A DNA stretch of 64,000 nucleotides from Gemmatimonadota bacterium (GTDB lineage Bacteria > Gemmatimonadota > Gemmatimonadetes > Gemmatimonadales > GWC2-71-9), in NCBI GenBank assembly GCA_003220795.1, contig QHTK01000044.1, positions 14,673 to 78,672 on the forward strand, given 5' to 3'. The translations under genes were made by a program, and so were the position numbers. The notes below the pieces were generated by a model. The model was not told the DNA's origin and made no database searches. It saw nothing but the letters and a program-made list of their open reading frames with translations. This document shows positions 38,927 through 54,637 of this stretch, in pieces; positions within the stretch are counted from its first letter, which is position 1, and each line of letters opens with the position of its first letter.

Positions 38927-38948
38927 TTCGGGAAATCTTCGCCATATT
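38927..38948 (+). promoter_or_regulatory. TTCG-N7-TTCG box abutting a -10 element upstream of lhr
   Basis: TTCGGGAAATCTTCGCCATATT resembles the boxes at 49947 and 54619. Confidence 0.55.
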
Positions 38949-38954
38949 TCGTCT

Positions 38955-41900
38955 GTGCCACTCTCCGGCTTTCACCCGACGATCGCGCGCTGGTTCGGCG
39001 ACCGGTTCGCGGAGCCCACCGAACCGCAGCGGGGCGCGTGGCCCGTCATTCAGGCGGGCCGTAACGCCCTGATCGCGGCGCCTACCGGCTCGGGGAAGAC
39101 GTTCGCCGCCTTCCTGGCGGCGATCGATTCCCTGCTGCGCCAGGGACTCGAGGGGACGCTGCGGGACGAAACGCAGGTGGTGTACGTGTCGCCGCTGAAG
39201 GCGCTCTCCAACGACGTTCAGAAGAACCTGGCCGAGCCGCTCGCCGAGATCCGGCGCACGCTCGAGGGGATGTGCCTTCCCGACGTAGAAATCCGGACGG
39301 TGGTTCGTACCGGTGACACGCCGGCGGCGGAGCGGCAAGCGATGGTGCACCGGCCGCCTCACATCCTCGTCACCACGCCCGAGTCGCTGTTTCTGATCCT
39401 TACGTCCGAACGCGCGCGCGAGATGCTCCGCAGCGTGCGCACGGTGATCGTCGACGAGATCCACGCGGTGGCGCGCGACAAGCGCGGCAGCCACCTCGCG
39501 CTGTCGCTCGAGCGGCTCGAGCACCTCGCGGGCCGGCGGCTGCAGCGCATCGGGCTCTCGGCGACACAAAAGCCGATCGAAGACATCGCCCAGTTCCTGG
39601 TCGGCGCCAATCGAGCCTCGAGCCCCGACTCAGGAGCCCCAACGATCATCGACTCCGGGCACGCCCGGGCGCTCGATCTCGCCATCGAGATCCTGTCCTC
39701 CCCGCTCGAAGCCGTGATGGCGGGTGAAGTGTGGGACGAGCTGTACGACCGGCTGGCGCAGTTGATCGGCGAGCACCGCACGACGCTCGTCTTCGTGAAC
39801 ACGCGGCGCTTGGCCGAGCGGCTCACGTTGCACCTGTCCGAGCGGCTCGGCGCGGAGCACGTGACCTCGCACCACGGCAGCCTGTCCAAAGAGAAGCGGC
39901 TCGACGCGGAGACCCGGCTCAAGGAGGGCAAGCTCAAGGCGCTCGTCGCGACGGCGTCGCTCGAGCTGGGGATCGACATCGGCACGGTGGACCTGGTGTG
40001 CCAGATCGGCTCGACGCGCTCGATTGCGACGCTGCTGCAGCGCGTGGGACGCGCGGGGCATCACCTCCAGGCAATCCCCAAGGGGCGGCTGTTCCCGCTG
40101 TCGCGCGACGAGCTGATCGAATGTGCGGCGCTGCTGCGGGCGACGGCGGAGCGCCGGCTGGACCGGCTGGTGATCCCCGACCACCCGCTCGACATCCTGG
40201 CTCAGCAGATCGTCGCGGCCGCCGCGGGCGACGAATGGGACGAAGCAGCGCTGTATGACCTGGTGCGCGGCGCGTATCCGTATCGCGACCTGTCCCGCAA
40301 GGACTTCGACGACGTAGTGCAGATGTTGGCGGAGGGGTTCACCACGCGCCGGGGCCGGCGCGGCGCGTACATCCACTACGACGGGGTGAACCACCGGCTG
40401 CGCGGCCGGCGCGGCGCCCGGCTCGCCGCCATCACCTCCGGCGGCGCGATCCCCGACATTGGGGACTACCGCGTGATCCTCGAACCGACCGAGACGTTCG
40501 TCGGCACGCTGAACGAGGATTTCGCGATCGAGAGCATGCCGGGCGATATCTTCCAGCTCGGCAACAGCTCGTACCTGATCAACAGGATCGAGTCGGGGCA
40601 GGTACGGGTGGTCGACGCGCAGGGCCAGCCGCCCAGCATTCCGTTCTGGTTGGGTGAAGCGCCGGCGCGCACGCCGGAGCTCTCGGAGGAAGTCTCCCGG
40701 CTCAGGCAGGACATCGCGGACCGTCTGGGCGATCCGCCCGGCGCGATCGCCTGGCTCGTGGGCGCCGTGCCGGGGCTCCCCGAGGCGGCGGCCCGCCAGA
40801 TGGTGGAGTACCTGGACGCCGCGCAGCGGATCCTCGGCGTCATTCCGACGCAGCAGACGCTCGTGCTCGAGCGGTTCTTCGACGAGGCGGGCGGGATGCA
40901 ACTGGTGCTGCACGCGCCGTTCGGCAGCCGCGTGAACCGGGCGTGGGGCCTGGCGCTGCGCAAGCGCTTCTGTCGCAGCTTCAACTTCGAGCTGCAGGCG
41001 GCGGCAACCGAAGATGCCATTGTTTTGTCGCTCGGGCCGCAGCACAGCTTCCCACTGGATGACGTGTTTCACTACCTCAAGCCCGACACCGCCGAGCACC
41101 TCTTGGTGCAGGCGATGCTGGACGCGCCCATGTTCGGCTCGCGGTGGCGCTGGAACGCAACGCGCGCGCTCGCGGTGCTGCGCTCGCGCGGCGGCAAGAA
41201 GGTGCCGACGCCGCTGCAGCGTATGGACGCGGAGGACCTGGTCGCCGCCGTCTTCCCCGACCAGCTCGCGTGCCCCGAGAATCTGGTAGGTGACCGGGAG
41301 ATCCCCCACCATCCGCTGGTGCAGCAGACGATCGCCGACTGCCTGCTCGAGGCGATGGACTTCCCCGGTCTGAAGCGGGTGCTCGAAGGCATGGATGCGG
41401 GACGCTTCACGCTGGTGGCGCGCGACACGCCGGAGCCGTCGCCCCTGTCGCACGAGGTGTTGAACGCCAAGCCGTACGCGTTCCTGGACGACGCCCCGCT
41501 GGAAGAGCGCCGCACCCAAGCCGTGATCACCCGCCGCGGCCTCGACGTGAAGACGGCCGACGAGCTCGGCACGCTCGACCGGGATGCGATCGACCGGGTG
41601 AAGGACGAGGCGTGGCCAGAGGTCACGAGCGCCGACGAACTTCACGACGCTCTACTCGTGATCGGTGCCGTCCCGAGTGCGGAATGCGGAGTGCGGAATG
41701 CGGAATGGCAGGGCCATTTCGATGAGCTGGCCGGGCAGCGGCGGGCAGGCCAGCTCATGACGGAGCGGCCCCTGTGGGTCGCGGCCGAGCGACTGCCGAT
41801 GCTCGAGGCGGTGTTCCCCGGGGCGGCATGCGAGCCGGCGCTGGTACCGCCCGAGCGGGAGCGCGCGAAGAGCTGGACCCGCGAGGACGGGATGCGTGAG

Positions 41901-43313
41901 CTGGTGCGCGGGCGGCTCGAGGCCGTGGGCCCGACGACGGCCGGGGCGATCGCGACGGCCCTCGGCGTCCCCGCGCCCGACGTCGATTTCGCCCTCGGGG
42001 CGCTCGAGCACGAGGGCTTCGTGCTGCGGGGCCGGTTCACCCCGGGCACCACCGAGCTCGAGTGGTGCGAGCGGCGGCTGCTCGCGCGCATCCACCGCTA
42101 CACGCTCGACCGGCTGCGCAAGGAGATTGAGCCGGTCACCGCGGCTGACTTCATGCGGTTCCTGCTGCGCTGGCAGCGGGTTGCCGAGGATGCGCGTGCC
42201 GAGGGGCCGGAGGGGCTCGCCGCCGTGCTCGACCTGCTCGACGGTTTCGAGCTGCCGGCGGGCGCGTGGGAGACCGACGTCCTTCCCGCCCGCATGCGGG
42301 AGTACGACCCGCTGTGGCTCGATGGGCTCTGCCTCTCGGGGGAGGTGGCGTGGGGGAGACTCAGTCAAACGCGGAACGTGGAAGGTGGAACGCGGAACAG
42401 AAAGACCGGCCCCATTCGCACGACGCCCGTTGCGCTGTTTCGACGGGAGAGGGGAGCCATCTGGCGGTCTTTGTCCACGCCGCCTGACACGGCGGATGGA
42501 GCGTTGTCCCATACGGCGGGCGCGGTGCTGGGCGTGCTCGATGAGCGCGGGGCATCGTTCTTTGGCGATCTCGTCAACGCGACCGGCCTGCTGCGTACCG
42601 AGGTGGAAAAGGGGCTGGGCGAGCTCGTCGCGTGGGGGCTCGTCACGTCCGACAGCTTCGCCGGGTTACGCGCGCTGCTGGTGCCGTCGGACCGGCGGCG
42701 TCCGATCGGGGCGGGGACGTTTCGACGGCGCGGCCGCGTGGCACCGTTCGGCGTCGAGACGGCGGGCCGCTGGTCGCGCGTGCGGCCGGGTTCGGTGCTG
42801 CCCGAGGACCAGCTCGCCGAAGCGGTCGCCCGGCAACTGCTGCGGCGCTACGGCGTCGTGTTCCGCCGCGTGGTGACGCGCGAAGCCTTGCTGGTGCCGT
42901 GGCGCGATCTGCTGCGCGTATACCGCCGCCTCGAGGCGCGCGGCGAGATCCGCGGCGGCCGCTTCGTCGGGGGGTTTTCGGGCGAGCAGTACGCCCTCCC
43001 CGAGGCGATCGGGCTCCTCCGCCAGGTGCGCCGCCAGGAGGCGAGCGGTGCGCTCGTCACGTTGAGCGGCGCCGACCCGCTCAACCTCGTCGGCATCGTC
43101 ACGCCGGGCGACGCGGTGCCCGCCTTCGCGACCAACCGGATCCTGTACCGGGACGGCATCCCGGTGGCGGTGAAAGAGGGAGAGGGGAGAGGCGAGCGGT
43201 TCCTGCTGGACGTGGGGCCCGAGGAGGCGCAGCTGCTGCGATCCGCCCTGGTGCGGCGGCGGGTGGCCCCGCTCGTGCGGACGTATCTCGGCAAGACGAG
43301 GGCGGGGACCTAG
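38955..43313 (+). CDS. lhr: Lhr family ATP-dependent DNA helicase (full length, with C-terminal domain)
   Basis: [36 protein letters not shown]-terminal [13 protein letters not shown]. Confidence 0.92.
41676..41708 (+). repeat. In-frame 7-bp GCGGAAT tandem array within lhr
   Basis: AGTGCGGAATGCGGAGTGCGGAATGCGGAATGG, identical to 48282-48314, encodes [11 protein letters not shown]. Confidence 0.85.
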
Positions 43314-43318
43314 GGTCG

Positions 43319-43825
43319 TCACGTCGATCGGCGCGAGCCGAATCGGCGCCACGCGTGATTCGCCAGCCGGCGCAGCGTCCCCTGGCGCTGCGAGAGAGTG
43401 GATGCTTTCAGACGCACGTCCGCCAGCACCCGGTCGAAGCCCGCCGCCCGATCGGCACGGTTGCGCACCCAGGCGAGCCCCCCGAACAATCGCACCGCCC
43501 CATACAGCACGTACTTGACCGGCGCGCTCACGGCGAGCACGCCCATCGCTTCGAGGAAGATCGCGTCGGCCTGGCGCCGCGGCCGGGTCTGTGTCCAGTA
43601 CAGCCAGTCGTGAATGACGCTCGCGTTGCCGTAGCGCCCCCACTTCGGCAGGATCACCCAGAAGGGTCGGGGGATGGTGGCGAAGTCGGTCTGGAAGCCG
43701 ATCGCCACCTCGATGTGGTCGCCGCTGCCCTCCGAGCCGACGTCGTAACCGAACGCGCGCACGATCACCCAGGTGGTGCCGTCGGCGAGCGGCGTCACCA
43801 CGAGCGCGTCGGTGAAGCAGCTCAC
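43319..43825 (-). CDS. DUF1353 domain protein
   Basis: GFQTDFATIPR, ASVIHDWLY, ADAIFLEAM, AVRLFG. The GTG overlaps the msrA stop. Confidence 0.8.
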   Translation of the reverse strand: MSCFTDALVVTPLADGTTWVIVRAFGYDVGSEGSGDHIEVAIGFQTDFATIPRPFWVILPKWGRYGNASVIHDWLYWTQTRPRRQADAIFLEAMGVLAVSAPVKYVLYGAVRLFGGLAWVRNRADRAAGFDRVLADVRLKASTLSQRQGTLRRLANHAWRRFGSRRST

Positions 43826-44376
43826 GCCGGCTGTTTCAACTTGTCCAGAAAGAGCTTCCGGACCTTCGCCACCTTGGGCGCGATCACCGCGCTGCAGTAC
43901 CCCTGGTTCGGGTTGCGACGGAAGTAGTCGCGGTGGTACTCCTCGGCCGGATAGAACGACTCGAGCGGCTTGAGCTCCGTGACGATGGCGTCGTCCCACA
44001 CGTGCTCGCGTTGCAGCTCCGCGATCACCCGCTCGGCCGCGGCCCGCTGCTCGGGTGTGTGATAATAGATCGCGGAGCGATACTGGGTCCCGACATCCGC
44101 CCCCTGCCGGTTCAGGGTCGTCGGGTCGTGGATCGTGAAGAAGACATGCAGCAAGTCGTCGAACGAGACGACCCGGGGATCGAACGTGATCTGCACGACC
44201 TCGGCGTGGCCGGTGGTCCCCGTGCACACCTGCTCGTATGACGGGTTCGCCACGCGACCGCCCGCGTATCCGGACTGGACGCGCTCGACGCCCCTCAGAT
44301 CCTGGAACGCCGCTTCGAGGCACCAGAAACAGCCGCCGGCGAGGGTGGCGACTTCGCGCTGGGGAGTGGCAGTCAC
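43822..44376 (-). CDS. msrA: Peptide-methionine (S)-S-oxide reductase
   Basis: GGCFWC, GYAGG, TGHAEVV, QYRSAIY, AEEYH. Confidence 0.96.
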   Translation of the reverse strand: MTATPQREVATLAGGCFWCLEAAFQDLRGVERVQSGYAGGRVANPSYEQVCTGTTGHAEVVQITFDPRVVSFDDLLHVFFTIHDPTTLNRQGADVGTQYRSAIYYHTPEQRAAAERVIAELQREHVWDDAIVTELKPLESFYPAEEYHRDYFRRNPNQGYCSAVIAPKVAKVRKLFLDKLKQPA

Positions 44377-44455
44377 GAACAAGGTCCTTTCGAAGGCGTG
44401 CGCCGAATGATAATCGTGATACGCGCCGGATGGTTCCCCCGCCGGCTCGTGGCGC

Positions 44456-44944
44456 TCAAAACGCCCACCCGGCAAGGAAGCGCAACGTTATGCCGCCGCC
44501 ATGGCCGCCCGGGGTCTCGCCGCCGATCGTCCCGACGACGCCACACCCAAAGTCGAAGAAAAGCCCCGGCCTCGTGTCGGGCCACAGCTCCGATCCCAGC
44601 AGCGCGGCCCATTCCACGCGTGCGACGCCCGGTTCGTTGCGGCCGAAGAGGCGGGCGAGACCGACGCTGAGGTAGAGCAAGGGCTCGTGGTCCGCGCGCC
44701 GCGGCAGGAATGGATCGGGCAGTTGAACCTGGGCGTGGGCGCCCACGCCGCCGCCCCCGAGCGCGACGCCGAGGCCGATGGGAGCATCCGGCAAGCGGTG
44801 CAGCAGCGCGAGCGCAGTCCCGTAGCCGGTGACGTCGGACCAGCCGAACGCAAAGGCGGTATGAGTGGGTCGGAGATCCCCGAGCTGGGCAGCGACGGGA
44901 TGGATGGAGGTGAGGGCGAGCGCGACAGTCCAGAGTGCCCGCAT
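44456..44944 (-). CDS. Hypothetical secreted/outer-membrane protein
   Basis: Signal peptide and C-terminal aromatic LAGWAF. Confidence 0.55.
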   Translation of the reverse strand: MRALWTVALALTSIHPVAAQLGDLRPTHTAFAFGWSDVTGYGTALALLHRLPDAPIGLGVALGGGGVGAHAQVQLPDPFLPRRADHEPLLYLSVGLARLFGRNEPGVARVEWAALLGSELWPDTRPGLFFDFGCGVVGTIGGETPGGHGGGITLRFLAGWAF

Positions 44945-44953
44945 GGGGTAATC

Positions 44954-47900
44954 TTACCCCCAATCTTTCGACTCGGGCGCGACACGGCGCATGGACTTGA
45001 GGAATGCCATTGCGGATTGCGGATTGTGGATTGCGGATTCGACGGGCGGGTCTTCAAATCCGCAATGCAGTCCTTTCGCTTCCTCCGCCAGCACGTTCAC
45101 CGTCCCATCGTCTTTCGCGAGCTTACCCCGCACCCATAGGAGCGGCTCGCCGCGGATCGCCGTGCGGTGCTCCCGGTATACATCGGGCCGCACGATCACG
45201 TTCACCATCCCCGCTACGTCCTCGACCAGCACGAAGACGAATCCCTTGGCGGTCTCTGGGCGCTGGCGCGCGACGACCAGGCCCGCCACCTCGACTCTCG
45301 CCCCGTGCTCGAGCCGGGGAAGCGCGTCGCTCTGCACCACTCCGGGCGGCAGCACGTCGCGCAGGAGCGCGAGCGGATGGCCGCTCGCCGCGAACCCCAG
45401 CACCGCGTACTCGGCGAGCAGCCGCTCGTCCGCCGCGAGACCGCCGAAGCGCAGTCGCTCGAACGGGTGGTCGAGAGCGAGCTCGAGCTGGCGCCGGCCG
45501 CGTGCCTCGCCGCCCTGCTCCGCTTCGGGCGGGAGCCACAGCCCCACTTGCCACAACAGCTCGCGCCGCGTCAGGCCGAAGCCGTCGCACCCGCCGACCC
45601 ACACCAGGTGCTCGATCGCGCTGCGCTTGAGCTTGGGGGGAGCCCGCCTCACGAAATCACCGACGCTCCGGAACGGGCCGCGCGCGCGCTCGTCCACGAC
45701 CGCGGTCGCCGTCTCCTCGCTCCAATCCCGGATGAACCCGAGCCCTACTCGCACGGCATCTGCTCCCCTTCCCCCTTCCCCGGCCTTCAACCGGCCTTTT
45801 CCCCCTTCCACCGTGCACCACACGTCGCTCAGGTTCACATCGGGGAGCCGGATCTCGACCTCGTTGCGTTTGGCGTCCCGCCCCAGCGCGTCGAGCGAGT
45901 AGAACCCCATCGGCTGATTGTTGAAGAGCGCGCAGTAGTACTCGGCCGGGTGATAATGCCTGAGCCACGCCGACTGGTAGGCGAGCAGCCCGAACGCCGC
46001 GGCGTGCGACTTGGGGAACCCGAACTCCGAGAACGCGATCACCTGGGTGAAGACGCGTTCGGCGACCGGCTCGGGGACGCCGCGCGCCGCCGCCCCCTCA
46101 CGGAACTCGTCCCAGAATCCCGCCATCAGCTCGCGGCTACGCCGGCGGCTCATGGCGCGTCGCAGCGCCTCCGCCTGCCCCGGCGTGAACCCCGCGAGCG
46201 CCTGGCACACCTGGAGCACCTGGTCCTGATAGAGGATCACCCCCAGGGTCTCCGCGAGCGCGTCTTTCAGGAGCGGGTGGTCCACCGGTGGCTCGTAGCG
46301 GCGGCCGCGGGCCCGGGCGCGGCGCTCGTCCTCGCGCCGCCGCACGTAGGGATTCACCGCGCCGCCCACGATGGGGCCGGGCCGCACGATCGCCACTTCG
46401 ACCGCGAGATCCTCGAGATTGCGCGGCCGGGTGCGGCGCAGCATCTGGATCTGCGCCCTGCTCTCGATCTGGAACAGCCCCACGGTGTCGCCGCGGCAGA
46501 TGCGGTCGTACACCGCCTGGTCGGCGAAGTCGATGCGCGACAGATCGGGCGGCGCCCCCTGGCGCGTCGCGATCAGCTCGACGCTCTCCTCGACCAGCGA
46601 CAGCATGCCGAGCGCCAGGAAGTCGATCTTCACGAAGCGCGCGTCGTCGCAGGAGTCCTTGTCCCACTGGCACACGACGCGGTCTTCCATCGCCGCCCGC
46701 TCGAGCGGCACGACTTCGACGAGCGGCCGGCTCGAGATGATCATCCCGCCGACGTGCTGCGACACGTGGCGCGGCAGCCCGGCGATTTCCTCGGCTAGCT
46801 CGCACAGCTCCTTCCAGAGCGGGGCGGCGCGCCGCCCCGCGAAGCCGGGCAGCTGATCCAGCTCGTCCGCCAGCTCCCCCGACCGCCGGTCCGCCAGCTT
46901 GGCGACTTGCTCGATCTCTCCCAACGGCAGATCGAGCGCCTTGCCGATCTCGCGCACCGCGGAGCGGAGCCGGTAGGTGGGGAAGGCGCAGACCAGCCCC
47001 ACGTGCTCGTCGCCGTAGCGCTTGTAGACCCGCCGGATCAGCTCCTCGCGGATCTCGCGCGGGAAGTCGAGGTCGATGTCGGGTACCGATGCGAGGCTCT
47101 CGTTCAGGAACCTGCCCAGGAACAGGCGGTTGGCGATCGGGTCGATGTGCGACAGGCCGAGCAGGTAGCAGACGATGGACGACACCGACGAGCCGCGCCC
47201 GCGGCCGGGGAGCAGGTTTCCGAGGGCCCGCCGGGTGCCCCGGCGCACGTCGGCCGCCACCTCGCGTGCCAGGTCGAACAGGTCGTGATAGACCAGGAAG
47301 AACCCACTGAGTCGATGGTGTTCGATTAGTGTCAGCTCTTCCGCGAGCCGCCGCTCCGCCTCGCCCCGGGGCTCGGAGCCCGCCGGATAGCGCTCGTCGA
47401 GGCGGGCACGGCACAGCTCGGCGAGCGCCTGCGGGGCGGGCGACCGGTCGGCCCCGCGGAAGTCCGGAAAGCCGTAACCCAGGTCCCGGGTGAGGTCGAA
47501 CGCCCGGCAGCGCTCGGCGAGCGCGAGCGTGTTGGCGACAGCATCGGGACAGTCCGCGAACAGTTCGGCGACTTCCGCGGGCGGCCGCAGGTAGAACTCG
47601 CTGTTCGGCCGCCGCACACCGTGCGACCCGTCGAGGGTGGTGCGGTGGCGGATCGCTGTGAGCACGTCGTGCAGCCGGTGGCGGGCGCGGACGTGATAAT
47701 GCACGTTGCCGGACGCCACAACGCCAAGCCGCGCGGCGTCCGCCACATCCATCAGGGAGCGTGTCAGGGCCCGATCGCCCCGCACGTAGTTGCGCTGCAG
47801 CTCGACGTAGAACCGCTCGGCGCCGAACACGGCGCGACAGCGTTCGGCGAACGCTCGGGCGGCGGTCACGCCTTCGTGCATCAGGATCCGCGGCAGCAGG

Positions 47901-48280
47901 CCCGTGCGGCAGCCGGACAGCACGATGAGCCCGGCGTGGCGCGCCTCGAGCGACGCGAAGTCGAGCCGCGGATCGCGCCGGTCGGCGCTACCGAGATGCG
48001 CCTCGGTGATCAGCCGGCACAGGTTCGCGTATCCGTCGGGCGTCTCGGCGAGCAGCGTCACGTGGGAGCCGTCGCGCAGCGTCAGCTCCGCGCCGGTGAT
48101 CGCCTGGAGGCCGAGCTGCTTCGCTTCGTGCGCGAACGCCAGCGAGCCGTACAGGCCGTTGTGGTCGGTGAGCGCCAGCCCTGCGTAGCCGAGCTGCGAC
48201 GCCGTGAGCGCGAGCTGCTCGGGGAGAGATGCACCGTCGAGGAAAGAAAACGCCGAGTGGCAGTGGAGCTCGATATACAT
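44954..48280 (-). CDS. dnaE2: Error-prone DNA polymerase III alpha (DnaE2/ImuC)
   Basis: PHP domain YIELHCHSAFSFLDGAS, GRGS, PDIDLD, KIDFLALGML, QIESRAQ, GFPKSHAAAF, OB fold RQRPETAKG. Confidence 0.93.
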   Translation of the reverse strand: MYIELHCHSAFSFLDGASLPEQLALTASQLGYAGLALTDHNGLYGSLAFAHEAKQLGLQAITGAELTLRDGSHVTLLAETPDGYANLCRLITEAHLGSADRRDPRLDFASLEARHAGLIVLSGCRTGLLPRILMHEGVTAARAFAERCRAVFGAERFYVELQRNYVRGDRALTRSLMDVADAARLGVVASGNVHYHVRARHRLHDVLTAIRHRTTLDGSHGVRRPNSEFYLRPPAEVAELFADCPDAVANTLALAERCRAFDLTRDLGYGFPDFRGADRSPAPQALAELCRARLDERYPAGSEPRGEAERRLAEELTLIEHHRLSGFFLVYHDLFDLAREVAADVRRGTRRALGNLLPGRGRGSSVSSIVCYLLGLSHIDPIANRLFLGRFLNESLASVPDIDLDFPREIREELIRRVYKRYGDEHVGLVCAFPTYRLRSAVREIGKALDLPLGEIEQVAKLADRRSGELADELDQLPGFAGRRAAPLWKELCELAEEIAGLPRHVSQHVGGMIISSRPLVEVVPLERAAMEDRVVCQWDKDSCDDARFVKIDFLALGMLSLVEESVELIATRQGAPPDLSRIDFADQAVYDRICRGDTVGLFQIESRAQIQMLRRTRPRNLEDLAVEVAIVRPGPIVGGAVNPYVRRREDERRARARGRRYEPPVDHPLLKDALAETLGVILYQDQVLQVCQALAGFTPGQAEALRRAMSRRRSRELMAGFWDEFREGAAARGVPEPVAERVFTQVIAFSEFGFPKSHAAAFGLLAYQSAWLRHYHPAEYYCALFNNQPMGFYSLDALGRDAKRNEVEIRLPDVNLSDVWCTVEGGKGRLKAGEGGRGADAVRVGLGFIRDWSEETATAVVDERARGPFRSVGDFVRRAPPKLKRSAIEHLVWVGGCDGFGLTRRELLWQVGLWLPPEAEQGGEARGRRQLELALDHPFERLRFGGLAADERLLAEYAVLGFAASGHPLALLRDVLPPGVVQSDALPRLEHGARVEVAGLVVARQRPETAKGFVFVLVEDVAGMVNVIVRPDVYREHRTAIRGEPLLWVRGKLAKDDGTVNVLAEEAKGLHCGFEDPPVESAIHNPQSAMAFLKSMRRVAPESKDWG
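45008..45067. repeat. In-frame GCGGATT heptamer array with inverted partner, in the dnaE2 C-terminus
   Basis: CATTGCGGATTGCGGATTGTGGATTGCGGATT and AATCCGCAATG, encodes SAIHNPQSAM. Confidence 0.75.
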
Positions 48281-48281
48281 A

Positions 48282-48631
48282 AGTGCGGAATGCGGAGTGC
48301 GGAATGCGGAATGGATGCGCGTGCTTCGATGCCGCGTTCCGGCAACCGTGTTCGCTAAGGCTTTTGTAAGAACCACTCCTGTGTCACGTGATCAACGAAT
48401 AACACTGCCCGTTGCCCACCCTCCAGAAGCACTTCGTAGTACGTCCGCGTGATCGGATCCCTCCACCACTCATCATCGATCCGCCATGTCTCCCGGACAG
48501 CCTCGATCGGCCCCACTCCGGTTCGCGAGGGCAATCCACATGCATCGAGTTCTACCTGCACGCGTTGTGGAACGTTGAGGGCTCGAAGTCGGTCAGTTCC
48601 ATTCCGCATTCCGCACTCCGCATTCCGCACT
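48282..48631. repeat. Perfect 34-bp inverted repeats (48282-48315, 48598-48631) made of GCGGAAT units
   Basis: AGTGCGGAATGCGGAGTGCGGAATGCGGAATGGA and its exact reverse complement. Confidence 0.9.
48355..48630 (-). CDS. Small DUF6504-like protein of the imuB-dnaE2 cassette
   Basis: ETWRIDDEWWR..I.RTYYEV...W motif and position between imuB and dnaE2. Confidence 0.75.
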   Translation of the reverse strand: MRNAECGMRNGTDRLRALNVPQRVQVELDACGLPSRTGVGPIEAVRETWRIDDEWWRDPITRTYYEVLLEGGQRAVLFVDHVTQEWFLQKP

Positions 48632-49931
48632 AGGTTTCATACTCGATCAACGCGTACCGCCGCTCCGGGAGCCGCGACCACGGCTGTACCTCGATGATGC
48701 GGTAGAGCAGCGTGCGCTTGAGCCGGAGCCGGATCTCCTGCAGGGCGGTGCGGAGGGCGCGCCGCCGGCCGGCCCGCGCAGCCGCGTTCGCGTCGCGGGC
48801 GAAGAGTTGCAGCTCGGCGGTGCCCGGCGCGAAGGCGGTGAACTCGACGGCGAGCCGCTCCACCGCGCCCGCGGGTGGCGCCTGCTCGAGCCGGGTCCGG
48901 AGCGGCGCGGCGATGCGATCCCGGTCGGCGGTCGGATCCTTCAGGGTCGCTGCGATCATCCACGATGCCCCATGCTCGAGCTCAGCACGGACGCGCACTA
49001 CCTGCACCCGCCAGCCGATGCGACGGGGATGCTGGAGCGCGCGCTCGATCAGCCGGTCCAGCGCGTGTGCGAGCATCGCGCGATCGACGACGGGAGAGAA
49101 AAACGCGAGCGCGGCGACGATCGGCTCGGGCGCTTCGCGGCCCACGACCCGCTCGACCACCTCCCCCGCCGCGAGCCGCCACATGCGGCGGCCGGCCGCG
49201 CCGAACTGCGAGACGACCGCTTCCTGCGGCAGCGCGGCGAGCCGGCCGAGGGTGGTGAGCCCGAGCTGGCGGAGCCGGCGGTGCGTGTCGGGATCGAGCG
49301 AGAGGGCGGCGAGCGGTTGGGAGGAGAGAAATGCCCCCTCCTCCCCCGGCTGTACGATCACGGCTTCCCCCGGGCGCGCGCGTGTGGCGGCGACCCAGGA
49401 GACGAACTTGCCGCGGCCCCACCCAACGCGGAGTGCGGAATGCGGAATGCGGAATGCGGAGTGTAAGTGCGAGTCTCGTGTGGCGAACGACCCTTCACTG
49501 AAATTCCGCATTCCGCATTCCGCACTCCGCATTTGTATGATTTCGACGATCTGCTGTGGCGAACCGTATAACTTTTCCAAGCCGTCAGTTCCTACGTATG
49601 CCCGCCCCAGCTCCGCCGGCTCCACCACCGGGCTCACCTCGCTCAGCGCTGCCAGCAGTCGCGCGAACTGCTCGTCGTAATGGACCGGGTCGGGCTCACA
49701 CAGCCGCAGCGACGAGCAGAGACCGATCGCCTGGCTGACCGTCATTCCCGGCTTTACTCCCGCGCGGTGAGCGAGTGGCGAGACCTGCCAGATCCGGCGG
49801 GTGGTGTCGGGGGCGAGTAAGGCGCACGGCTGGGACGCGAGCTCGGGTCGCCGCGCCTCTTCGCAGCGCAGGGCGAAGAGGGGGATCCAGCAGCAGGCGG
49901 CGGTCGAGCTCGCGAGATGATTGTGCGGCAT
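48630..49931 (-). CDS. imuB: ImuB-like catalytically inactive Y-family polymerase
   Basis: AGVKPGMTVSQA IMS motif. Catalytic acidic residues replaced (CCWIPLF; ELGRAY). LRQLGLTTLG HhH and ELQLF. Confidence 0.85.
   Translation of the reverse strand: MPHNHLASSTAACCWIPLFALRCEEARRPELASQPCALLAPDTTRRIWQVSPLAHRAGVKPGMTVSQAIGLCSSLRLCEPDPVHYDEQFARLLAALSEVSPVVEPAELGRAYVGTDGLEKLYGSPQQIVEIIQMRSAECGMRNFSEGSFATRDSHLHSAFRIPHSALRVGWGRGKFVSWVAATRARPGEAVIVQPGEEGAFLSSQPLAALSLDPDTHRRLRQLGLTTLGRLAALPQEAVVSQFGAAGRRMWRLAAGEVVERVVGREAPEPIVAALAFFSPVVDRAMLAHALDRLIERALQHPRRIGWRVQVVRVRAELEHGASWMIAATLKDPTADRDRIAAPLRTRLEQAPPAGAVERLAVEFTAFAPGTAELQLFARDANAAARAGRRRALRTALQEIRLRLKRTLLYRIIEVQPWSRLPERRYALIEYET
49428..49532. repeat. 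Inverted pair of GCGGAAT arrays in frame inside imuB
   Basis: 49428-49463 and 49503-49532, encode RSAECGMRN...HSAFRIPHSALR. Confidence 0.85.
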
Positions 49932-49946
49932 GCGGTGTTTTCAGGG

Positions 49947-49965
49947 ACCCGAATATATCCCGAAG
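49947..49965 (-). promoter_or_regulatory. Putative SOS-like operator overlapping a TATATT -10, upstream of imuB
   Basis: CTTCGGGATATATTCGGGT on the minus strand, identical copy at 54619-54637. Confidence 0.75.
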
Positions 49966-50026
49966 ATCGCAGGGGTCGCAAGGCTGGTTCCTGAGCAGAT
50001 AAACCATTGATATATTTCGACTTCTA

Positions 50027-50971
50027 ATGACCAGTCGTAACCAACCGAGTCTGTTCGAAGACATCGCCTCGCTCCCGCCACCTCCGCAGGAGCTCGTCGC
50101 GCTCGGCCGCCACATTCCTCCGTCCATTCGGTTTGGCACTTCGACCTGGACCTACGACGGCTGGGCGGGCGACGTCTATCATCGGAGCTACCGGGGAGCG
50201 CAGCCGGCACGCCGGCTCGAGGAGTACGCGCGCTACCCGTTGTTCCAGACGGTGGGGATCGACAGCGCGTACTACGAGCCACCCGAAGAACCGGTGCTCG
50301 CCGCGTACGCGAAGGCCTTACCGCCGGGCTTCCCCTGTGTCAGCAAGGTGTGGGATCGCATCACCGCGCGGCGGCTCGAGAGTGAGCGGAACCCCGATTT
50401 CCTGAACGCGGATCTCTTCAAGGATGCGGTGCTGGGGCCCTACCAGCGCGCCTTCTCGGACCACGCGGGGTGTTTCGTGTTCGAGTTCCAGCCGATGCGC
50501 GGCAAGGACCTCCCCGATCCCGCGCGTTGGCCGGACGACCTCGACGACTTCCTGCGACAGCTGCCGCGCGATGTCCGCTATGCGGTCGAATTGCGGAACC
50601 GCGAGCTGCTGAGCGACGGGCACGGCGCCGTCCTGGCGCGCCATGGGGTGGCGCACGTCTTCAATTCTTGGACCGAGATGCCCACCATCGGCGAGCAGCT
50701 CGAGCTGCCGTGGACCTTTCCGGCGCCCTTCACCGTCGCGCGGGCATTGCTCCGACCGGGACGCCGCTACGCCGACGCGGTGAAGCTGTTCGAGCCGTAC
50801 GATCGGATTCGCGATCCGCAGCCCGAGCTGCGGCAGGACCTGCTGCGGCTGGTCGCCGAGGCGCTCAGGCGACGGGTGGAGGCGTTGATCCTCGTCAACA
50901 ACCGGCTCGAGGGAAATGCGCCGGGGACGATCCGCGCGCTGGTCGACGCATTGACCGGGGAGCGGTCGTGA
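50027..50971 (+). CDS. DUF72 (YecE-like) protein 1
   Basis: FGTSTWTYDGW, TVGIDSAYY, YAVELRN, NNRLEGNAP. Confidence 0.9.
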   Translation: MTSRNQPSLFEDIASLPPPPQELVALGRHIPPSIRFGTSTWTYDGWAGDVYHRSYRGAQPARRLEEYARYPLFQTVGIDSAYYEPPEEPVLAAYAKALPPGFPCVSKVWDRITARRLESERNPDFLNADLFKDAVLGPYQRAFSDHAGCFVFEFQPMRGKDLPDPARWPDDLDDFLRQLPRDVRYAVELRNRELLSDGHGAVLARHGVAHVFNSWTEMPTIGEQLELPWTFPAPFTVARALLRPGRRYADAVKLFEPYDRIRDPQPELRQDLLRLVAEALRRRVEALILVNNRLEGNAPGTIRALVDALTGERS

Positions 50972-51930
50972 ACGGCGGCCGCCCCTCCCCGGCGGAGCCG
51001 CTGCCGCCGCCGCGTGCCGAGCTCGTCGCGCTCGCCGCGGCGGTGCCGCCTGGGATCAAGTTCGGGACGGCGAGCTGGACCGTGGACGGCTGGGCGGGCG
51101 ACGTGTACCACCGGAGTTATCGAGGAGCCCAGCCGGCGGCGCGGCTCGAGGAATACGTGCGGTACCCGCTGTTCCGCACCGTGGGGATCAACTCCGCCTT
51201 CTACGAGTCTCCCTCCGAGCGGATTCTCGATGCGTACGCCCGCGCGCTGCCCGAGGGGTACTCCTGCGTCGTGAAGGTGTGGGACCGGATCACGGCCCGC
51301 CGCTTCATCCGGGACCGGCGCTGGGGACCGCTGGCGGGCCAGCTCAACCCCGATTTCCTGGACGCGCGCCTGTTTCTCGGCAGTGTGCTGGCGCGCTACG
51401 CGCGGGTGTTCAGCCGGCACTCGATCTGTTTCGTGTTCCAGTTCCAGGCGATGCGGGGCGCGGACCTGCTCGATGCCGCAGCGTGGGCCGAGCGACTCGA
51501 TCGATTCTTCGGGCAGCTGCCGCAGGATTTCCGCTACGCGGTCGAGCTGCGGAACGCCGAGCTCCTGACGGACCACCACGGCGCCGTGCTCGAGCGGCAC
51601 GGCGTGGCACACGTGTTCAACTCCTGGACCGAGATGCCGCCAATCGGCACGCAACTGCATCTTCCCTGGACCCTCGCGGCGCCGTTCACCGTCGCGCGCG
51701 CACTCCTCAAGCCGGGGCGGAAGTATGCCGAGGCGGTGCGGGCGTTCGAGCCGTACGACCGTGTGAAAGAAGTGTTACCCGAGTTGCGCCGCGATCTGCT
51801 GCGCCTCATGGGGGAAGCCGAGCGGCGGGGCATCGAGGCACTGATACACGTGAACAACCGGGCCGAGGGGAACGCGCCGGGGACGATCCGGGAGCTGGCC
51901 GAGCAATGGATCAACGGGCGGGGGCCCTGA
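50968..51930 (+). CDS. DUF72 (YecE-like) protein 2, tandem paralogue
   Basis: FGTASWTVDGW, TVGINSAFY, YAVELRN, NNRAEGNAP. GTGA overlap with the upstream gene. Confidence 0.9.
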   Translation: MNGGRPSPAEPLPPPRAELVALAAAVPPGIKFGTASWTVDGWAGDVYHRSYRGAQPAARLEEYVRYPLFRTVGINSAFYESPSERILDAYARALPEGYSCVVKVWDRITARRFIRDRRWGPLAGQLNPDFLDARLFLGSVLARYARVFSRHSICFVFQFQAMRGADLLDAAAWAERLDRFFGQLPQDFRYAVELRNAELLTDHHGAVLERHGVAHVFNSWTEMPPIGTQLHLPWTLAAPFTVARALLKPGRKYAEAVRAFEPYDRVKEVLPELRRDLLRLMGEAERRGIEALIHVNNRAEGNAPGTIRELAEQWINGRGP

Positions 51931-51940
51931 TGCGGGGGCG

Positions 51941-51986
51941 GCCTGCGGCGCGTGGAGTTGCCACGCGTCCGCAGGCGTGCTAGCGT
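51941..51986 (+). promoter_or_regulatory. Hairpin (51941-51976) overlapping a sigma70-like promoter TTGCCA-N17-TAGCGT
   Basis: GCCTGCGGCGCGTGG / CCACGCGTCCGCAGGC inverted repeat, -35 at 51958, -10 at 51981. Confidence 0.5.
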
Positions 51987-52040
51987 ATCATGGTGTAACC
52001 CCCGGAAAACCGCACAAACCGCACGCCGCGGGGGCGGTGC

Positions 52041-52463
52041 ATGAGCGCTAGTCGTCGGGGTGTTCCGACGCTCCCGGTCGAGTTGTTGCGGGACGCCGTC
52101 GGACGGGAAGTCGCGCGGTTGTCGTTACGCGGCGCGGCCAAGGCCATTGCGGTCAGCCCGAACGGGCTGCGCAACTTTTTGAACGGCTCGGCTCCCCGCA
52201 GCGCCACCCGCGCAAAGTTGGAACGCTGGCTCGCCACCCAGGACCGCCCCTCGCGCCCGCCGGGCGTGGGTCAGCTCGTTCGGCTGCTGAGCGAGCTCTC
52301 GGCGGACCTCTCTCCCCAACAGACGGAGCAGCTCGGGCGCGCCATCACGGTGCTGCTCGCCGACGCCTACACGGCGCGTCGGCTCGCGTCGCCCCGGTGG
52401 GTGCAGGAGCTGCTCCGGCATTACCAAACGCGCCGGGGCAAGAGCTCGAGCGAAGTCGCCTAG
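52041..52463 (+). CDS. Hypothetical XRE-like HTH protein, paralogue A
   Basis: SLRGAAKAIAVSPNGLRNFLNG HTH-like pattern, clear similarity to 52835-53254. Confidence 0.75.
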   Translation: MSASRRGVPTLPVELLRDAVGREVARLSLRGAAKAIAVSPNGLRNFLNGSAPRSATRAKLERWLATQDRPSRPPGVGQLVRLLSELSADLSPQQTEQLGRAITVLLADAYTARRLASPRWVQELLRHYQTRRGKSSSEVA

Positions 52464-52519
52464 GGCAGCCCTTGCGGGGGATGCACCCCGGTGGTAGGTA
52501 GTAGGGGAAGACGTGCAGT

Positions 52520-52834
52520 TTGTGCAGTTGTCCCGGAGCCGCGTGGGGAAGCCCACATGTCTGGAGCCTGTTGAAGCGCCGCGCCGCGCGCAGCACCGCA
52601 AGGACAAAGTCCCCCCGCGCGCGGGAGACCGAGCAGAGCTCGAGTGCGAAGGTCAGGGAGATCGTGCGTCTCGTAGAGGCGTTGAGCGGCGATCTCGGCT
52701 CCCATGACGGGGTGGTCGTAGGCCGGGGTATGGCGCAGCTGTTGGTCGAAGCGTATGGGGAGCGACGCGAGCCGGTGCCGAGCTGGGTCAGGGAGCTGCT
52801 CGCCCAATTCGCCCCGGGGACGCCGCGCGTTTGA
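52520..52834 (+). CDS. Paralogue B with the C-terminal domain only (start uncertain, possibly TTG 52571)
   Basis: VREIVRLVEALSGDL..GRGMAQLLVEAY.ERR..P.WVRELL aligns with the C-halves of both neighbours. Confidence 0.6.
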   Translation: MCSCPGAAWGSPHVWSLLKRRAARSTARTKSPRARETEQSSSAKVREIVRLVEALSGDLGSHDGVVVGRGMAQLLVEAYGERREPVPSWVRELLAQFAPGTPRV

Positions 52835-53254
52835 GTGCCACGCCCCCGTGGTAGCGTCGTCCCGACGCTGCCGATAGGCTTGTTGCGCGACGCGGTCGCG
52901 CGGGAAGCCGCGCGCTCCTCCTTGAGAAGCGTTGCGCGAGAGCTTGCCATGAGCCCGAATGGCGTGCGCGACTTCGTGCAGGGTGCGATGCCGCGGGGCG
53001 CCACCCGGCTGAAGGTCGAGCGGTGGCTCGTGTCGCAGGGACGAATCGCCCGACCACCCAACGTCGGCCAGTTCGTCCGGTTATTGAACGAGTTGGCGGG
53101 AGACCTCTCCCCCACGCAAGCGGTTCAGATGGGCCGCCACCTCGCTGCGTTGCTCGTCGAGTCGTACGAGGAGCGCCGACTGGCGCCGCCGCCCTGGGTG
53201 CGGCAGCTGGTTCGCTATTACGAGCCCCCCCGAACCGCGGGCGACGTCGCGTGA
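52835..53254 (+). CDS. Hypothetical XRE-like HTH protein, paralogue C
   Basis: VPTLPIGLLRDAVAREAARSSLRSVARELAMSPNGVRDFVQG. Confidence 0.75.
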   Translation: MPRPRGSVVPTLPIGLLRDAVAREAARSSLRSVARELAMSPNGVRDFVQGAMPRGATRLKVERWLVSQGRIARPPNVGQFVRLLNELAGDLSPTQAVQMGRHLAALLVESYEERRLAPPPWVRQLVRYYEPPRTAGDVA

Positions 53255-53294
53255 GGCGTGCTGCGCGGTCGCCGACCGCTACAACGGGCGGCCG

Positions 53295-54386
53295 TCATAA
53301 CGCCAGCTCGCCCTGCGACGCGGGCAGCCGGCGCTCGTAGCGATCCTGCATTCCTTCGTTCACCGGGAAGCCGTACTTCTGTTGCAGCCGCTGGACGCGT
53401 TGCCGCAGCGCCGCCGCGTATTGTCGCGGTGCGCCCAGCGAGCGCGCGTAGGCGCGACGATACCGCTGCTCCAGCCCGGGAAACTGCTCGCGCAGGAGCG
53501 GCAGGAAGCGATCCCGCACGGCAGGGTAGAGCCGCAGCGCCCCCGCGTGCACGAACCGGGCGCCGGCCTCGCGGGCCGCCTGAAAGAGCGCTTCCAGGTG
53601 GGCCACGTCGTCCGTGATCCCCGGCAGCACCGGCGCCACGATCAGCCCCGCCCGCACGCCCGCGTCGGTGAGCCGTTTCAGCGCGCGCAGCCGGACGCCG
53701 GGCACCGGGGAGCGAGCCTCGATCTTGCGGATCAGCCCAGCGTCGACCGAGATCAGCGAGACGTATACCTCGAGATCGTTCGCATCCTGCAGACGGCGCA
53801 GCACGTCGCGGTCGCGCGCCACGAGCGGGCTCTTCGTGATGAGGCCGACGTTCAAGCCCTCGCAGCGCGCCAGCCGCTCGAGCACGCGGCGCGTGAGCCG
53901 GAAGCGACGCTCGGCGGGCTGGTAGGGGTCCGTCGCGGTGCCGATGACGAGCGGGGCGGTCCCTAAAGGACTGGGCGAGCCGTCAGGCGGACGCGCGGAC
54001 CGGAAGTACCGCTGCAGGTCCCGCTCCAGCGCGGCAAGCAGCCCCTCCTTCACGAAGATGCGCCGCTCAAACGCCTCCCAGCCATGCGGCCCGCGGAAAT
54101 CCTGAAACTCGCTGTCCGAGAGCTTCCCTGCATCGCGCGCGCGCTCGACCACGTAGCGATGTGCGTAGCGCGCATAGCAGTAGCTGCATCCGAACTCGCA
54201 CCCCACGTACGGGTTCAGCGACCAGAAGTCCACGCCCGTTTGCTGCGGGGAATTGAGGATCGACTTGGGCGTGAGCGACACGAACCTCGTGCCGCGCAGG
54301 CGCTCGTCGAGCACCGGCAGCGCCGACGGGCGCATCGCCGGATAGTCGGATAGATGAAGCCCGATCTGCTCGCTGTTACTGTGCAT
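53295..54386 (-). CDS. Radical SAM protein, spore photoproduct lyase-like (Rv2578c/SplB-like)
   Basis: NPYVGCEFGCSYCYAR, TATDPYQPAE, ITKS, APVLPGITD. Confidence 0.9.
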   Translation of the reverse strand: MHSNSEQIGLHLSDYPAMRPSALPVLDERLRGTRFVSLTPKSILNSPQQTGVDFWSLNPYVGCEFGCSYCYARYAHRYVVERARDAGKLSDSEFQDFRGPHGWEAFERRIFVKEGLLAALERDLQRYFRSARPPDGSPSPLGTAPLVIGTATDPYQPAERRFRLTRRVLERLARCEGLNVGLITKSPLVARDRDVLRRLQDANDLEVYVSLISVDAGLIRKIEARSPVPGVRLRALKRLTDAGVRAGLIVAPVLPGITDDVAHLEALFQAAREAGARFVHAGALRLYPAVRDRFLPLLREQFPGLEQRYRRAYARSLGAPRQYAAALRQRVQRLQQKYGFPVNEGMQDRYERRLPASQGELAL

Positions 54387-54392
54387 TGTCGA

Positions 54393-54424
54393 TCCGCCTA
54401 CCCGTCTACCCGTCTATCCGTCTA
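54393..54424. repeat. Intergenic 8-bp tandem array (CCGTCTA-type)
   Basis: TCCGCCTACCCGTCTACCCGTCTATCCGTCTA. Confidence 0.6.
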
Positions 54425-54428
54425 GCAG

Positions 54429-54575
54429 TTACCCGCACCGCGCCCAGCCACACTGCACGCACACCAGGCACCCGGACTGTCGGGTGAGACCCGCGCCGCA
54501 GTCGGGACAGGGTGCCGTCCGAGCGGGTGGAGACGGCGGGGGTACGGGCTTGGGCAACTCGAGCGGCGCGTGCAT
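54429..54575 (-). CDS. 48-aa zinc-ribbon microprotein, absent from the ORF track
   Basis: MHAPLELPKPVPPPSPPARTAPCPDCGAGLTRQSGCLVCVQCGWARCG, with a GGAG RBS upstream. Confidence 0.75.
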   Translation of the reverse strand: MHAPLELPKPVPPPSPPARTAPCPDCGAGLTRQSGCLVCVQCGWARCG

Positions 54576-54618
54576 TCGGAGCTCCGCGATGTTCGCTGCT
54601 CTTGGTTCTGTCTCGCGT

Positions 54619-54637
54619 ACCCGAATATATCCCGAAG
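54619..54637 (-). promoter_or_regulatory. Putative SOS-like operator upstream of the Zn-ribbon / radical SAM operon
   Basis: 19/19 identical to 49947-49965. Confidence 0.75.

Follow-up and report, generated by a model that had tools for sequence, protein, structure and literature searches.

The LexA box of the alphaproteobacteria is a direct repeat, GTTC-N7-GTTC (PMC3323433), and the same GTTC motif was reported in Acidobacterium capsulatum (Mazon et al. 2006, cited in PMC3323433). In the Balneolaeota, LexA controls a small regulon of lexA, recA, translesion polymerases, a helicase and a radical SAM protein by way of a direct-repeat motif, TTACACATATTTTWTACATA, that was validated by electrophoretic mobility shift assay (EMSA) (PMC7739468). 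Direct-repeat LexA motifs reportedly have had several independent origins (PMC3323433, PMC7739468). Cassettes that carry dnaE2 typically are LexA-regulated (PMC3919608), variants without ImuA are in print (PMC6511836), and radical SAM genes of the SplB kind are under SOS control in several species (PMC8565304) or SOS-associated (PMC3765255). The present work concerns a direct repeat, TTCGG-N6-TTCGG, in a stretch of 64,000 nucleotides from a Gemmatimonadales bacterium of the phylum Gemmatimonadota (contig QHTK01000044.1; hereafter the window), where it precedes imuB-dnaE2, an operon that encodes a Zn-ribbon protein and a radical SAM protein and, in an imperfect form, lhr. The repeat is most probably the operator of the single canonical LexA of this bacterium, a reading to which we assign a probability of about 0.9.

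This box resembles that of the alphaproteobacteria in being a direct repeat with an 11-bp period and a TTC-N8-TTC core, situated before lexA, recA and cassettes of the imuA-imuB-dnaE2 type. It differs in its word, which is TTCGG; the base 5' of TTC is not conserved, whereas the two G's 3' of TTC are kept, and the Gemmatimonadota unit therefore is not a GTTC box. The first-pass annotation of the window had drawn the analogy with GTTC-N7-GTTC (PMC3323433), of which the 11-bp direct-repeat resemblance stands and the G before TTC does not.

The Balneolaeota regulon likewise is built on a direct repeat, and its make-up is very close to that of the Gemmatimonadota one; its motif is wholly unlike TTCGG-N6-TTCGG, and the evidence there came from EMSA, whereas here it comes from sequence. 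Both phyla belong to the same FCB group. As in the imuA-imuB-dnaE2 cassette, an inactive-looking Y-family protein and then DnaE2 are encoded behind a LexA-type operator. The locus differs from that cassette in having no imuA at the head of the operon (a genome-wide search for imuA was not made) and in the Zn-ribbon open reading frame (ORF) and SplB-like radical SAM gene that lie upstream in many relatives. This radical SAM-imuB-dnaE2 arrangement was not found in the text consulted on such cassettes (PMC3919608, PMC6511836).

A description of the LexA box of Gemmatimonadota was not found in a non-exhaustive literature search that covered few subscription journals. A direct-repeat LexA operator is the expected kind of switch, and its sequence in Gemmatimonadota is undescribed in the literature found. 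The Gemmatimonadota rank with the most abundant phyla of soil; a paper on how they respond to DNA damage was not found. A known LexA box would provide a searchable definition of the SOS regulon of the phylum. That regulon appears to be built on mutagenic translesion synthesis (imuB-dnaE2), an SplB-like radical SAM repair enzyme with a Zn-ribbon partner, and recA, with Lhr added in some genera. The LexA of this lineage would add a further independent instance of direct-repeat recognition, which bears on how a dimeric repressor changes the geometry of its site. If the reading is true, the boxed promoters would be ready-made damage-inducible promoters for the few cultured Gemmatimonadota.

An identical 19-mer in two promoters of the window

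Two exact copies of the 19-mer CTTCGGGATATATTCGGGT, and no more, were found in the window, on its minus strand (Table 1); one is 15 nt from the ATG of imuB (49931) and the other 43 nt from the start of the Zn-ribbon ORF (54575) that heads the radical SAM operon. These identical copies had been reported in the first-pass annotation, and their coordinates and distances were confirmed. None of 100 dinucleotide shuffles of the window contained a match to the 19-mer at three or fewer mismatches. The same annotation had taken the looser pattern TTCG-N7-TTCG as the defining unit, which had to be abandoned: this pattern had five matches in the window compared to 2.2 expected, 11 of 100 shuffles reached five, and the conserved unit proved to be TTCGG-N6-TTCGG. 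The significance of the box therefore rests on the longer identity together with the genome-wide and cross-genome evidence, not on the loose pattern.

A consensus promoter scan called a promoter at each of the two copies. The imuB promoter had a -35 element TTGCGA (49981-49976) and a -10 element TATATT (49957-49952) with a spacing of 18 nt, and the promoter of the radical SAM operon had TTGCCG (54651-54646) and TATATT (54629-54624) with a spacing of 16 nt; both -10 elements were predicted to lie inside the identical boxes. The spacer of the recA box (see below) likewise contains a -10-like TATATT. The earlier statement that each box overlaps or abuts a -10 element thus held for imuB and the radical SAM operon; at lhr a CATATT abuts the box in the sequence, and the scan called no lhr promoter. 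The window contains no lexA gene, as had been noted; the sole LexA_DNA_bind match above the cut-off in the genome was on contig C1.

Distribution of the box in the genome

The genome (3.30 Mb in 103 contigs, 69% GC, 92% complete) was scanned against a crude gene call of 2856 genes, in which 92.4% of the DNA was coding and 7.6% non-coding. Exact TTCGG-N6-TTCGG was present at 13 sites, ten of them intergenic (binomial P = 1.6e-9). Two of the intergenic sites belonged to lexA and one each to recA-recX, imuB, the Zn-ribbon/radical SAM operon and a DinB-family gene; the other four comprised one near a DNA polymerase III delta'-like gene, two before outer-membrane beta-barrel genes and one between convergent genes. 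The two exact lexA boxes, 9 and 35 nt upstream of the gene on contig C1, had three mismatches to the 17-base core. This core had three exact copies in the genome, the third being 25 nt before the DinB-family gene on contig C16, and two further sites at one mismatch, one of which was 41 nt before recA-recX.

The exact box near the delta'-like gene, TTCGGCATATATTCGG (C51:2062-2077; L249 163-178), is an orphan that lies in a 224-nt, AT-richer gap, 114 nt from that gene and in the opposite orientation. The gap contained no ORF, Rfam match, promoter call or unusual RNA fold (z = -0.57). The boxes before the beta-barrel genes (C11:20699-20714 and C20:14345-14360) were exact, with the spacers TAAATG or CATTTG. 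Identical 16-mers were present in two other genomes of the class (G095:C6:273439, and G105:C1:2736907 and 3025553), and the G105 copies adjoin DUF222/HNH endonuclease genes.

Conservation of the box before orthologous genes

The lexA set consisted of 80 Gemmatimonadota loci whose LexA was 70-93% identical; relatives in this identity range were found in Gemmatimonadota only. L041 had no upstream DNA, which left 79 scored loci, and all 79 carried the box, with two exact boxes 25-31 nt apart in 76 of them and one box in three. The arms were kept and the spacers varied. In 108 of the 109 distinct lexA sites the fifth base of the second arm was G, while the base before the first arm was A in 14, C in 44, G in 33 and T in 18, and that before the second arm was A in 24, C in 34, G in 21 and T in 30. 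By eye, the first box lay between the conserved hexamers TTGC(G/A) and TA(G/C)ATT of the lexA promoter, and the second just downstream. Beyond the family, lexA had two exact boxes in 14 of 14 genomes from seven other families of the class.

The family sample comprised 60 genomes, one per genus, together with the window's own genome (61 in all); G014, G104 and G139 did not enter any box count. After exclusion of two of 30 recA loci (L204, from G014, and L224, without upstream DNA), an exact box in gene orientation was found within 200 nt upstream in 28/28 loci. In the 111 kb of the 28 loci other than the own one, exact boxes numbered 28, and every one fell into a 200-nt upstream window. Thirty loci were available for the radical SAM gene; with L138 (G014) left out, 27 of 29 had an exact box upstream of the orthologue at a distance of 600 nt or less. 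In the same 27 loci the Cys motif of the Zn-ribbon was detected directly upstream of the radical SAM gene by tblastn.

For imuB, 22 of 30 loci were examined; L096, L097, L106, L107 and L108 (partial or contig-end matches), L105 (G014), and L109 and L110 (DinB-like matches, 29-30% identical) were left out. An exact box was present at no more than 250 nt upstream in 15 of the 22, and at 1200-1400 nt in three more, where it stood at the head of a Zn-ribbon/radical SAM-imuB operon, giving a total of 18/22. The remaining four loci had no box in the upstream DNA present (up to 1100 nt). Some boxes of the imuB and radical SAM relatives were in either orientation, and some were paired.

An unbiased count of 4-N(0-12)-4 dyads upstream of three gene sets ranked sub-words of TTCGG-N6-TTCGG first to fourth. 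The top dyads occurred in 100%, 100% and 82-86% of the sequences, compared to 0-2% of coding controls.

LexA and the proposed mechanism

The genome encodes a single lexA, on contig C1, whose product matched PF01726 with 86.5 bits and TIGR00498 with 210.3 bits (cut-off 110.95). The protein aligned over its full length with Escherichia coli LexA and had VAAGEP, GQSM and TVKRF at the Ala-Gly cleavage site, the catalytic Ser and the Lys, respectively. Its recognition helix reads S-L-A-T-V-H-E-H-L, compared to S-P-N-A-A-E-E-H-L in E. coli. The genome, 92% complete, was also searched for WYL-domain regulators, and none was found. G088, G096, G116, G118, G121, G140 and G081, which belong to a neighbouring family and, in one case, to another order, contain a second LexA-like gene that is distant from this LexA (32-36% identity).

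The proposal that the box is the LexA operator of this lineage, made when the window was first annotated, is supported by the boxes at lexA and recA and by the retention of the box in relatives, upstream of lexA, recA, imuB and the radical SAM gene. The presence of two boxes per lexA promoter is a signature of LexA autoregulation. The predicted regulon is small, consisting of lexA, recA-recX, imuB-dnaE2, the Zn-ribbon/radical SAM operon, one DinB-family gene and, probably, lhr.

The 11-bp period places both half-sites on one face of the helix. Because the half-sites lie in tandem, one helical turn apart, a LexA dimer presumably would have to bind head-to-tail; the analogy is with the alphaproteobacterial direct repeat GTTC-N7-GTTC. 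LexA bound to the box would cover the -10 element or the transcription start of the imuB-dnaE2 and radical SAM promoters, and since the operator encloses the -10 TATATT, it would block RNA polymerase. Upon DNA damage, RecA-stimulated self-cleavage of LexA would release the imuB-dnaE2 and radical SAM operons, and lexA, recA-recX and the DinB-family gene would be derepressed together with them. The lhr gene probably would be repressed more weakly, with its one-mismatch box next to a -10 element.

LexA and its repeat in other classes of the phylum

None of the six genomes sampled from other Gemmatimonadota classes had an exact or one-mismatch box at lexA. Instead, TTCG(C/T)-N6-TTCGC repeats were found in the lexA promoters of five of seven genomes (G074, G070, G064, G067 and G069; families f9-f11); in G070, G074 and G064 there was one such repeat between a -35 element TTGACT and a -10 element. 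Helix 3 of LexA read ATVHKHL in these classes (ATAHKHL in one; six of six), compared to ATVHEHL in the class Gemmatimonadetes, a change of Glu to Lys at the position that aligns with Glu45 of E. coli LexA.

It is conceivable, though doubtful, that LexA and its operator changed specificity together, that this one residue reads the fifth base of each arm, and that the TTCGC arm at lhr is a tuned low-affinity site. The co-change of helix and operator is a lead rather than a test, because it represents a single change on the tree.

TTCG(C/T)-N6-TTCGC was also considered as a genome-wide regulon word in the five other-class genomes and was rejected, its total being no higher than that of the reversed control. 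Apart from lexA promoters, the only SOS gene at which it was found was the dinB-like neighbour of lexA in G070.

Evidence against LexA control and alternative explanations

Several results weigh against the assignment of the box to LexA. Sites with one mismatch were not enriched in intergenic DNA in the genome scan (9 of 190), and the lhr site was the only one of these nine with a repair gene as its neighbour. Three of the 13 exact sites were in coding DNA, and two of the intergenic ones preceded outer-membrane beta-barrel genes. In five relatives the counts of the exact pattern and of its reversed control were 19/12, 15/7, 10/1, 24/4 and 22/12. The box before the DinB-family gene had no counterpart in any of the loci of five distant homologues (one without upstream DNA), nor before the paralogue in the same genome, and in this genome lexA, recA and lhr were without a call in the promoter scan. 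LexA as the protein that binds the box is what we infer from the logic of the regulon.

The search of SOS genes that had been suggested in the first-pass annotation gave a divided answer. Boxes were found at lexA (two) and recA (one); the two uvrA genes, ssb and dinB/Pol IV had none within 300 nt upstream at up to two arm mismatches, and the same interval before recN contained only a two-mismatch match. The regulon therefore appears to be small and centred on translesion synthesis.

Paired boxes were also sought in metagenomes, with a mixed outcome. The 80 loci listed comprised 14 lexA promoters, on high-GC contigs, one imuA-like locus and 65 unrelated loci. Most of the loci without a LexA gene were low-GC and had no SOS gene, and many were low-GC tandem repeats. 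The scan recovered no lexA of Patescibacteria and no LexA gene in the low-GC loci. The imuA-like locus was on a metagenome contig of 70% GC (L271:4731-5414) and held an ORF of 228 aa that is RecA-like and resembles imuA, 115 nt from a paired TTCGG-N6-TTCGG.

The box might instead be the operator of another damage regulator, XRE/DdrO-like or of some other kind, that controls lexA, recA and repair genes, in which case LexA would have its sites elsewhere or none here. The link between LexA and the box was drawn from sequence; the radiation response of Deinococcus is under a non-LexA repressor whose motif also precedes recA; and the window encodes an HTH_31 protein (52041-52463), with a weak Pfam match below the cut-off. 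Such a regulator nevertheless is very unlikely, since two boxes occupy the lexA promoters across the class (76/79 loci and 14/14 genomes of other families), the content of the gene set (lexA, recA, imuB-dnaE2, SplB-like radical SAM) is that of LexA regulons elsewhere, and LexA itself is intact and cleavable by sequence, with no WYL regulator found. The joint change of the lexA repeat and the LexA helix in other classes points the same way; as one event it is only suggestive.

A part of the promoter, such as an alternative sigma factor element for damage genes, also would be found always in promoter regions, and the TATATT-like spacers at imuB, the radical SAM operon and recA would fit it. The arrangement of the boxes makes this highly improbable. 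At lexA they lie between the -35 and -10 elements and downstream of the -10, compared to over the -10 at imuB and the radical SAM operon; they are found inverted and in pairs; and the lexA spacer is not TATATT-like, its arms being kept nonetheless. The variable position of the box relative to the promoter and its occurrence in either orientation argue for an operator rather than a promoter element. The two 19-mers also could be leftovers of a recent duplication of a promoter segment, with no shared regulatory meaning, as the core word occurs three times in the genome, and as the radical SAM gene and imuB form one operon in many relatives, so that a split with duplication of the promoter could explain the window. 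This explanation is essentially excluded by the presence of the box before orthologues: many genera whose ImuB is 60-87% identical retain the same sequence upstream of the gene, and the arms recur with other spacers before lexA and recA. Furthermore, the identity of the two copies ends at the edges of the 19-mer and their flanks differ. A LexA operator remains the preferred reading of the box.

The box before lhr

The imperfect box before lhr is followed directly by a CATATT (38944-38949), and the GTG start codon is 6 nt further on, at 38955. Its second arm has a C at the fifth base, which is G in 108 of 109 distinct lexA sites. Of 24 lhr loci, one (L131) was cut at a contig end and was left out. 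An exact box was found in three of the other 23, which belong to three other genera, at -21 to -29 before the start. A one-mismatch box was present in three: in this genome, in a second whose TTCGCC arm is the same, and in a third where the box is on the opposite strand. The remaining 17 of the 23 had no box; these include G027, a genome of the same genus and the closest relative, in which the first arm of the lhr box has been lost.

The claim that lhr is a member of the regulon therefore can be kept in part. A one-mismatch box is in place and is mirrored in other genera; because the box is imperfect and patchily conserved, lhr is a probable rather than a firm member. The chances that lhr is under control of the box in this genome, by way of a weak operator, appear roughly even.

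In many relatives the lhr start codon follows a TATATT or CATATT by 5-7 nt, and the window is alike in this respect. With the hexamer so near to the start, the lhr mRNA would be leaderless or nearly so.

Genes behind the boxes

The features of the window are given in Table 1.

Table 1. Predicted operators and the genes behind them in the window
Feature	Position	Strand	Basis and remarks
LexA operator (predicted), imuB-dnaE2 promoter	49947-49965	-	Exact 19-mer; core TTCGG-N6-TTCGG at 49949-49964
LexA operator (predicted), Zn-ribbon/radical SAM promoter	54619-54637	-	Exact 19-mer; core at 54621-54636
Imperfect box, lhr	38927-38943	+	Sequence: TTCGGGAAATCTTCGCC (TTCGG-N6-TTCGC)
imuB, Y-family polymerase homologue, 433 aa	48630-49931	-	Pfam IMS and IMS_C; first gene of operon
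dnaE2, error-prone DNA polymerase	44954-48376	-	NF004225, 965.9 bits (cut-off 939); downstream of imuB
Zn-ribbon ORF, 48 aa	54429-54575	-	ORF list; CPDCG...SGC..C..CGWARCG; first gene of operon
SplB-like radical SAM protein	53295-54386	-	Pfam Radical_SAM; related to Rv2578c and PA0069 families
lhr, large helicase-related protein, 1452 aa	38955-43313	+	Pfam DEAD, Helicase_C, DEAD_assoc, WH_Lhr, WH3_Lhr, WH4_Lhr

ImuB was matched by the NCBIfam Pol IV models in two pieces and only below the cut-off, and its N-terminus reads WIP in place of the DMD-type catalytic motif. DnaE2 had the Pfam domains PHP, DNA_pol3_alpha, finger and HHH_6; the crude gene caller favoured 48280 as its start. The Zn-ribbon ORF resembled the C-terminal Zn ribbon of a class II ribonucleotide reductase model, NF006417, far below its cut-off, and the radical SAM protein scored 183.7 bits with NF038135 and 179 bits with NF033668, both below the cut-off.

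A 244-nt RNA contig, at 54366-54609, spanned the Zn-ribbon ORF and reached the beginning of the radical SAM gene; strand, transcription start and induction could not be read from it, and DNA carry-over is possible. The RNA data came from four soil metatranscriptomes of one study, which contained 7-11% of the sampled words, in short contigs only, with no damage treatment.

The next gene upstream of imuB is a divergent DUF72 gene, and there is no imuA in the 15 nt between the operator and imuB. This DUF72 gene is one of two in tandem (50027-51930), which have their own TATATT about 35 nt beyond the box and therefore probably are outside its control. The radical SAM operon and imuB-dnaE2 are separated by 4.7 kb in the window, with the two DUF72 genes, a helix-turn-helix gene and others between them, and each of the separated halves keeps its own identical operator and -10 element. 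In many members of the family the Zn-ribbon ORF, the radical SAM gene, imuB and presumably dnaE2 are in one row behind one or two boxes; examples in which the radical SAM gene is directly upstream of imuB are G049:C20, G013:C5, G025:C56, G008:C18 and G052:C18.

A palindromic dispersed repeat of about 100 nt (REP/MITE-like) was located in frame inside imuB, at 49434-49531 (residues ~134-166), in the region where several orthologues match as two separate pieces. Partial copies were present elsewhere in the window, at ~41675-41707, 48282-48321 and 48594-48631, and copies of 74-84% identity were found on at least six other contigs (C68, C29, C26, C13, C89 and C36). Pieces similar to this repeat also were observed in several related genomes.

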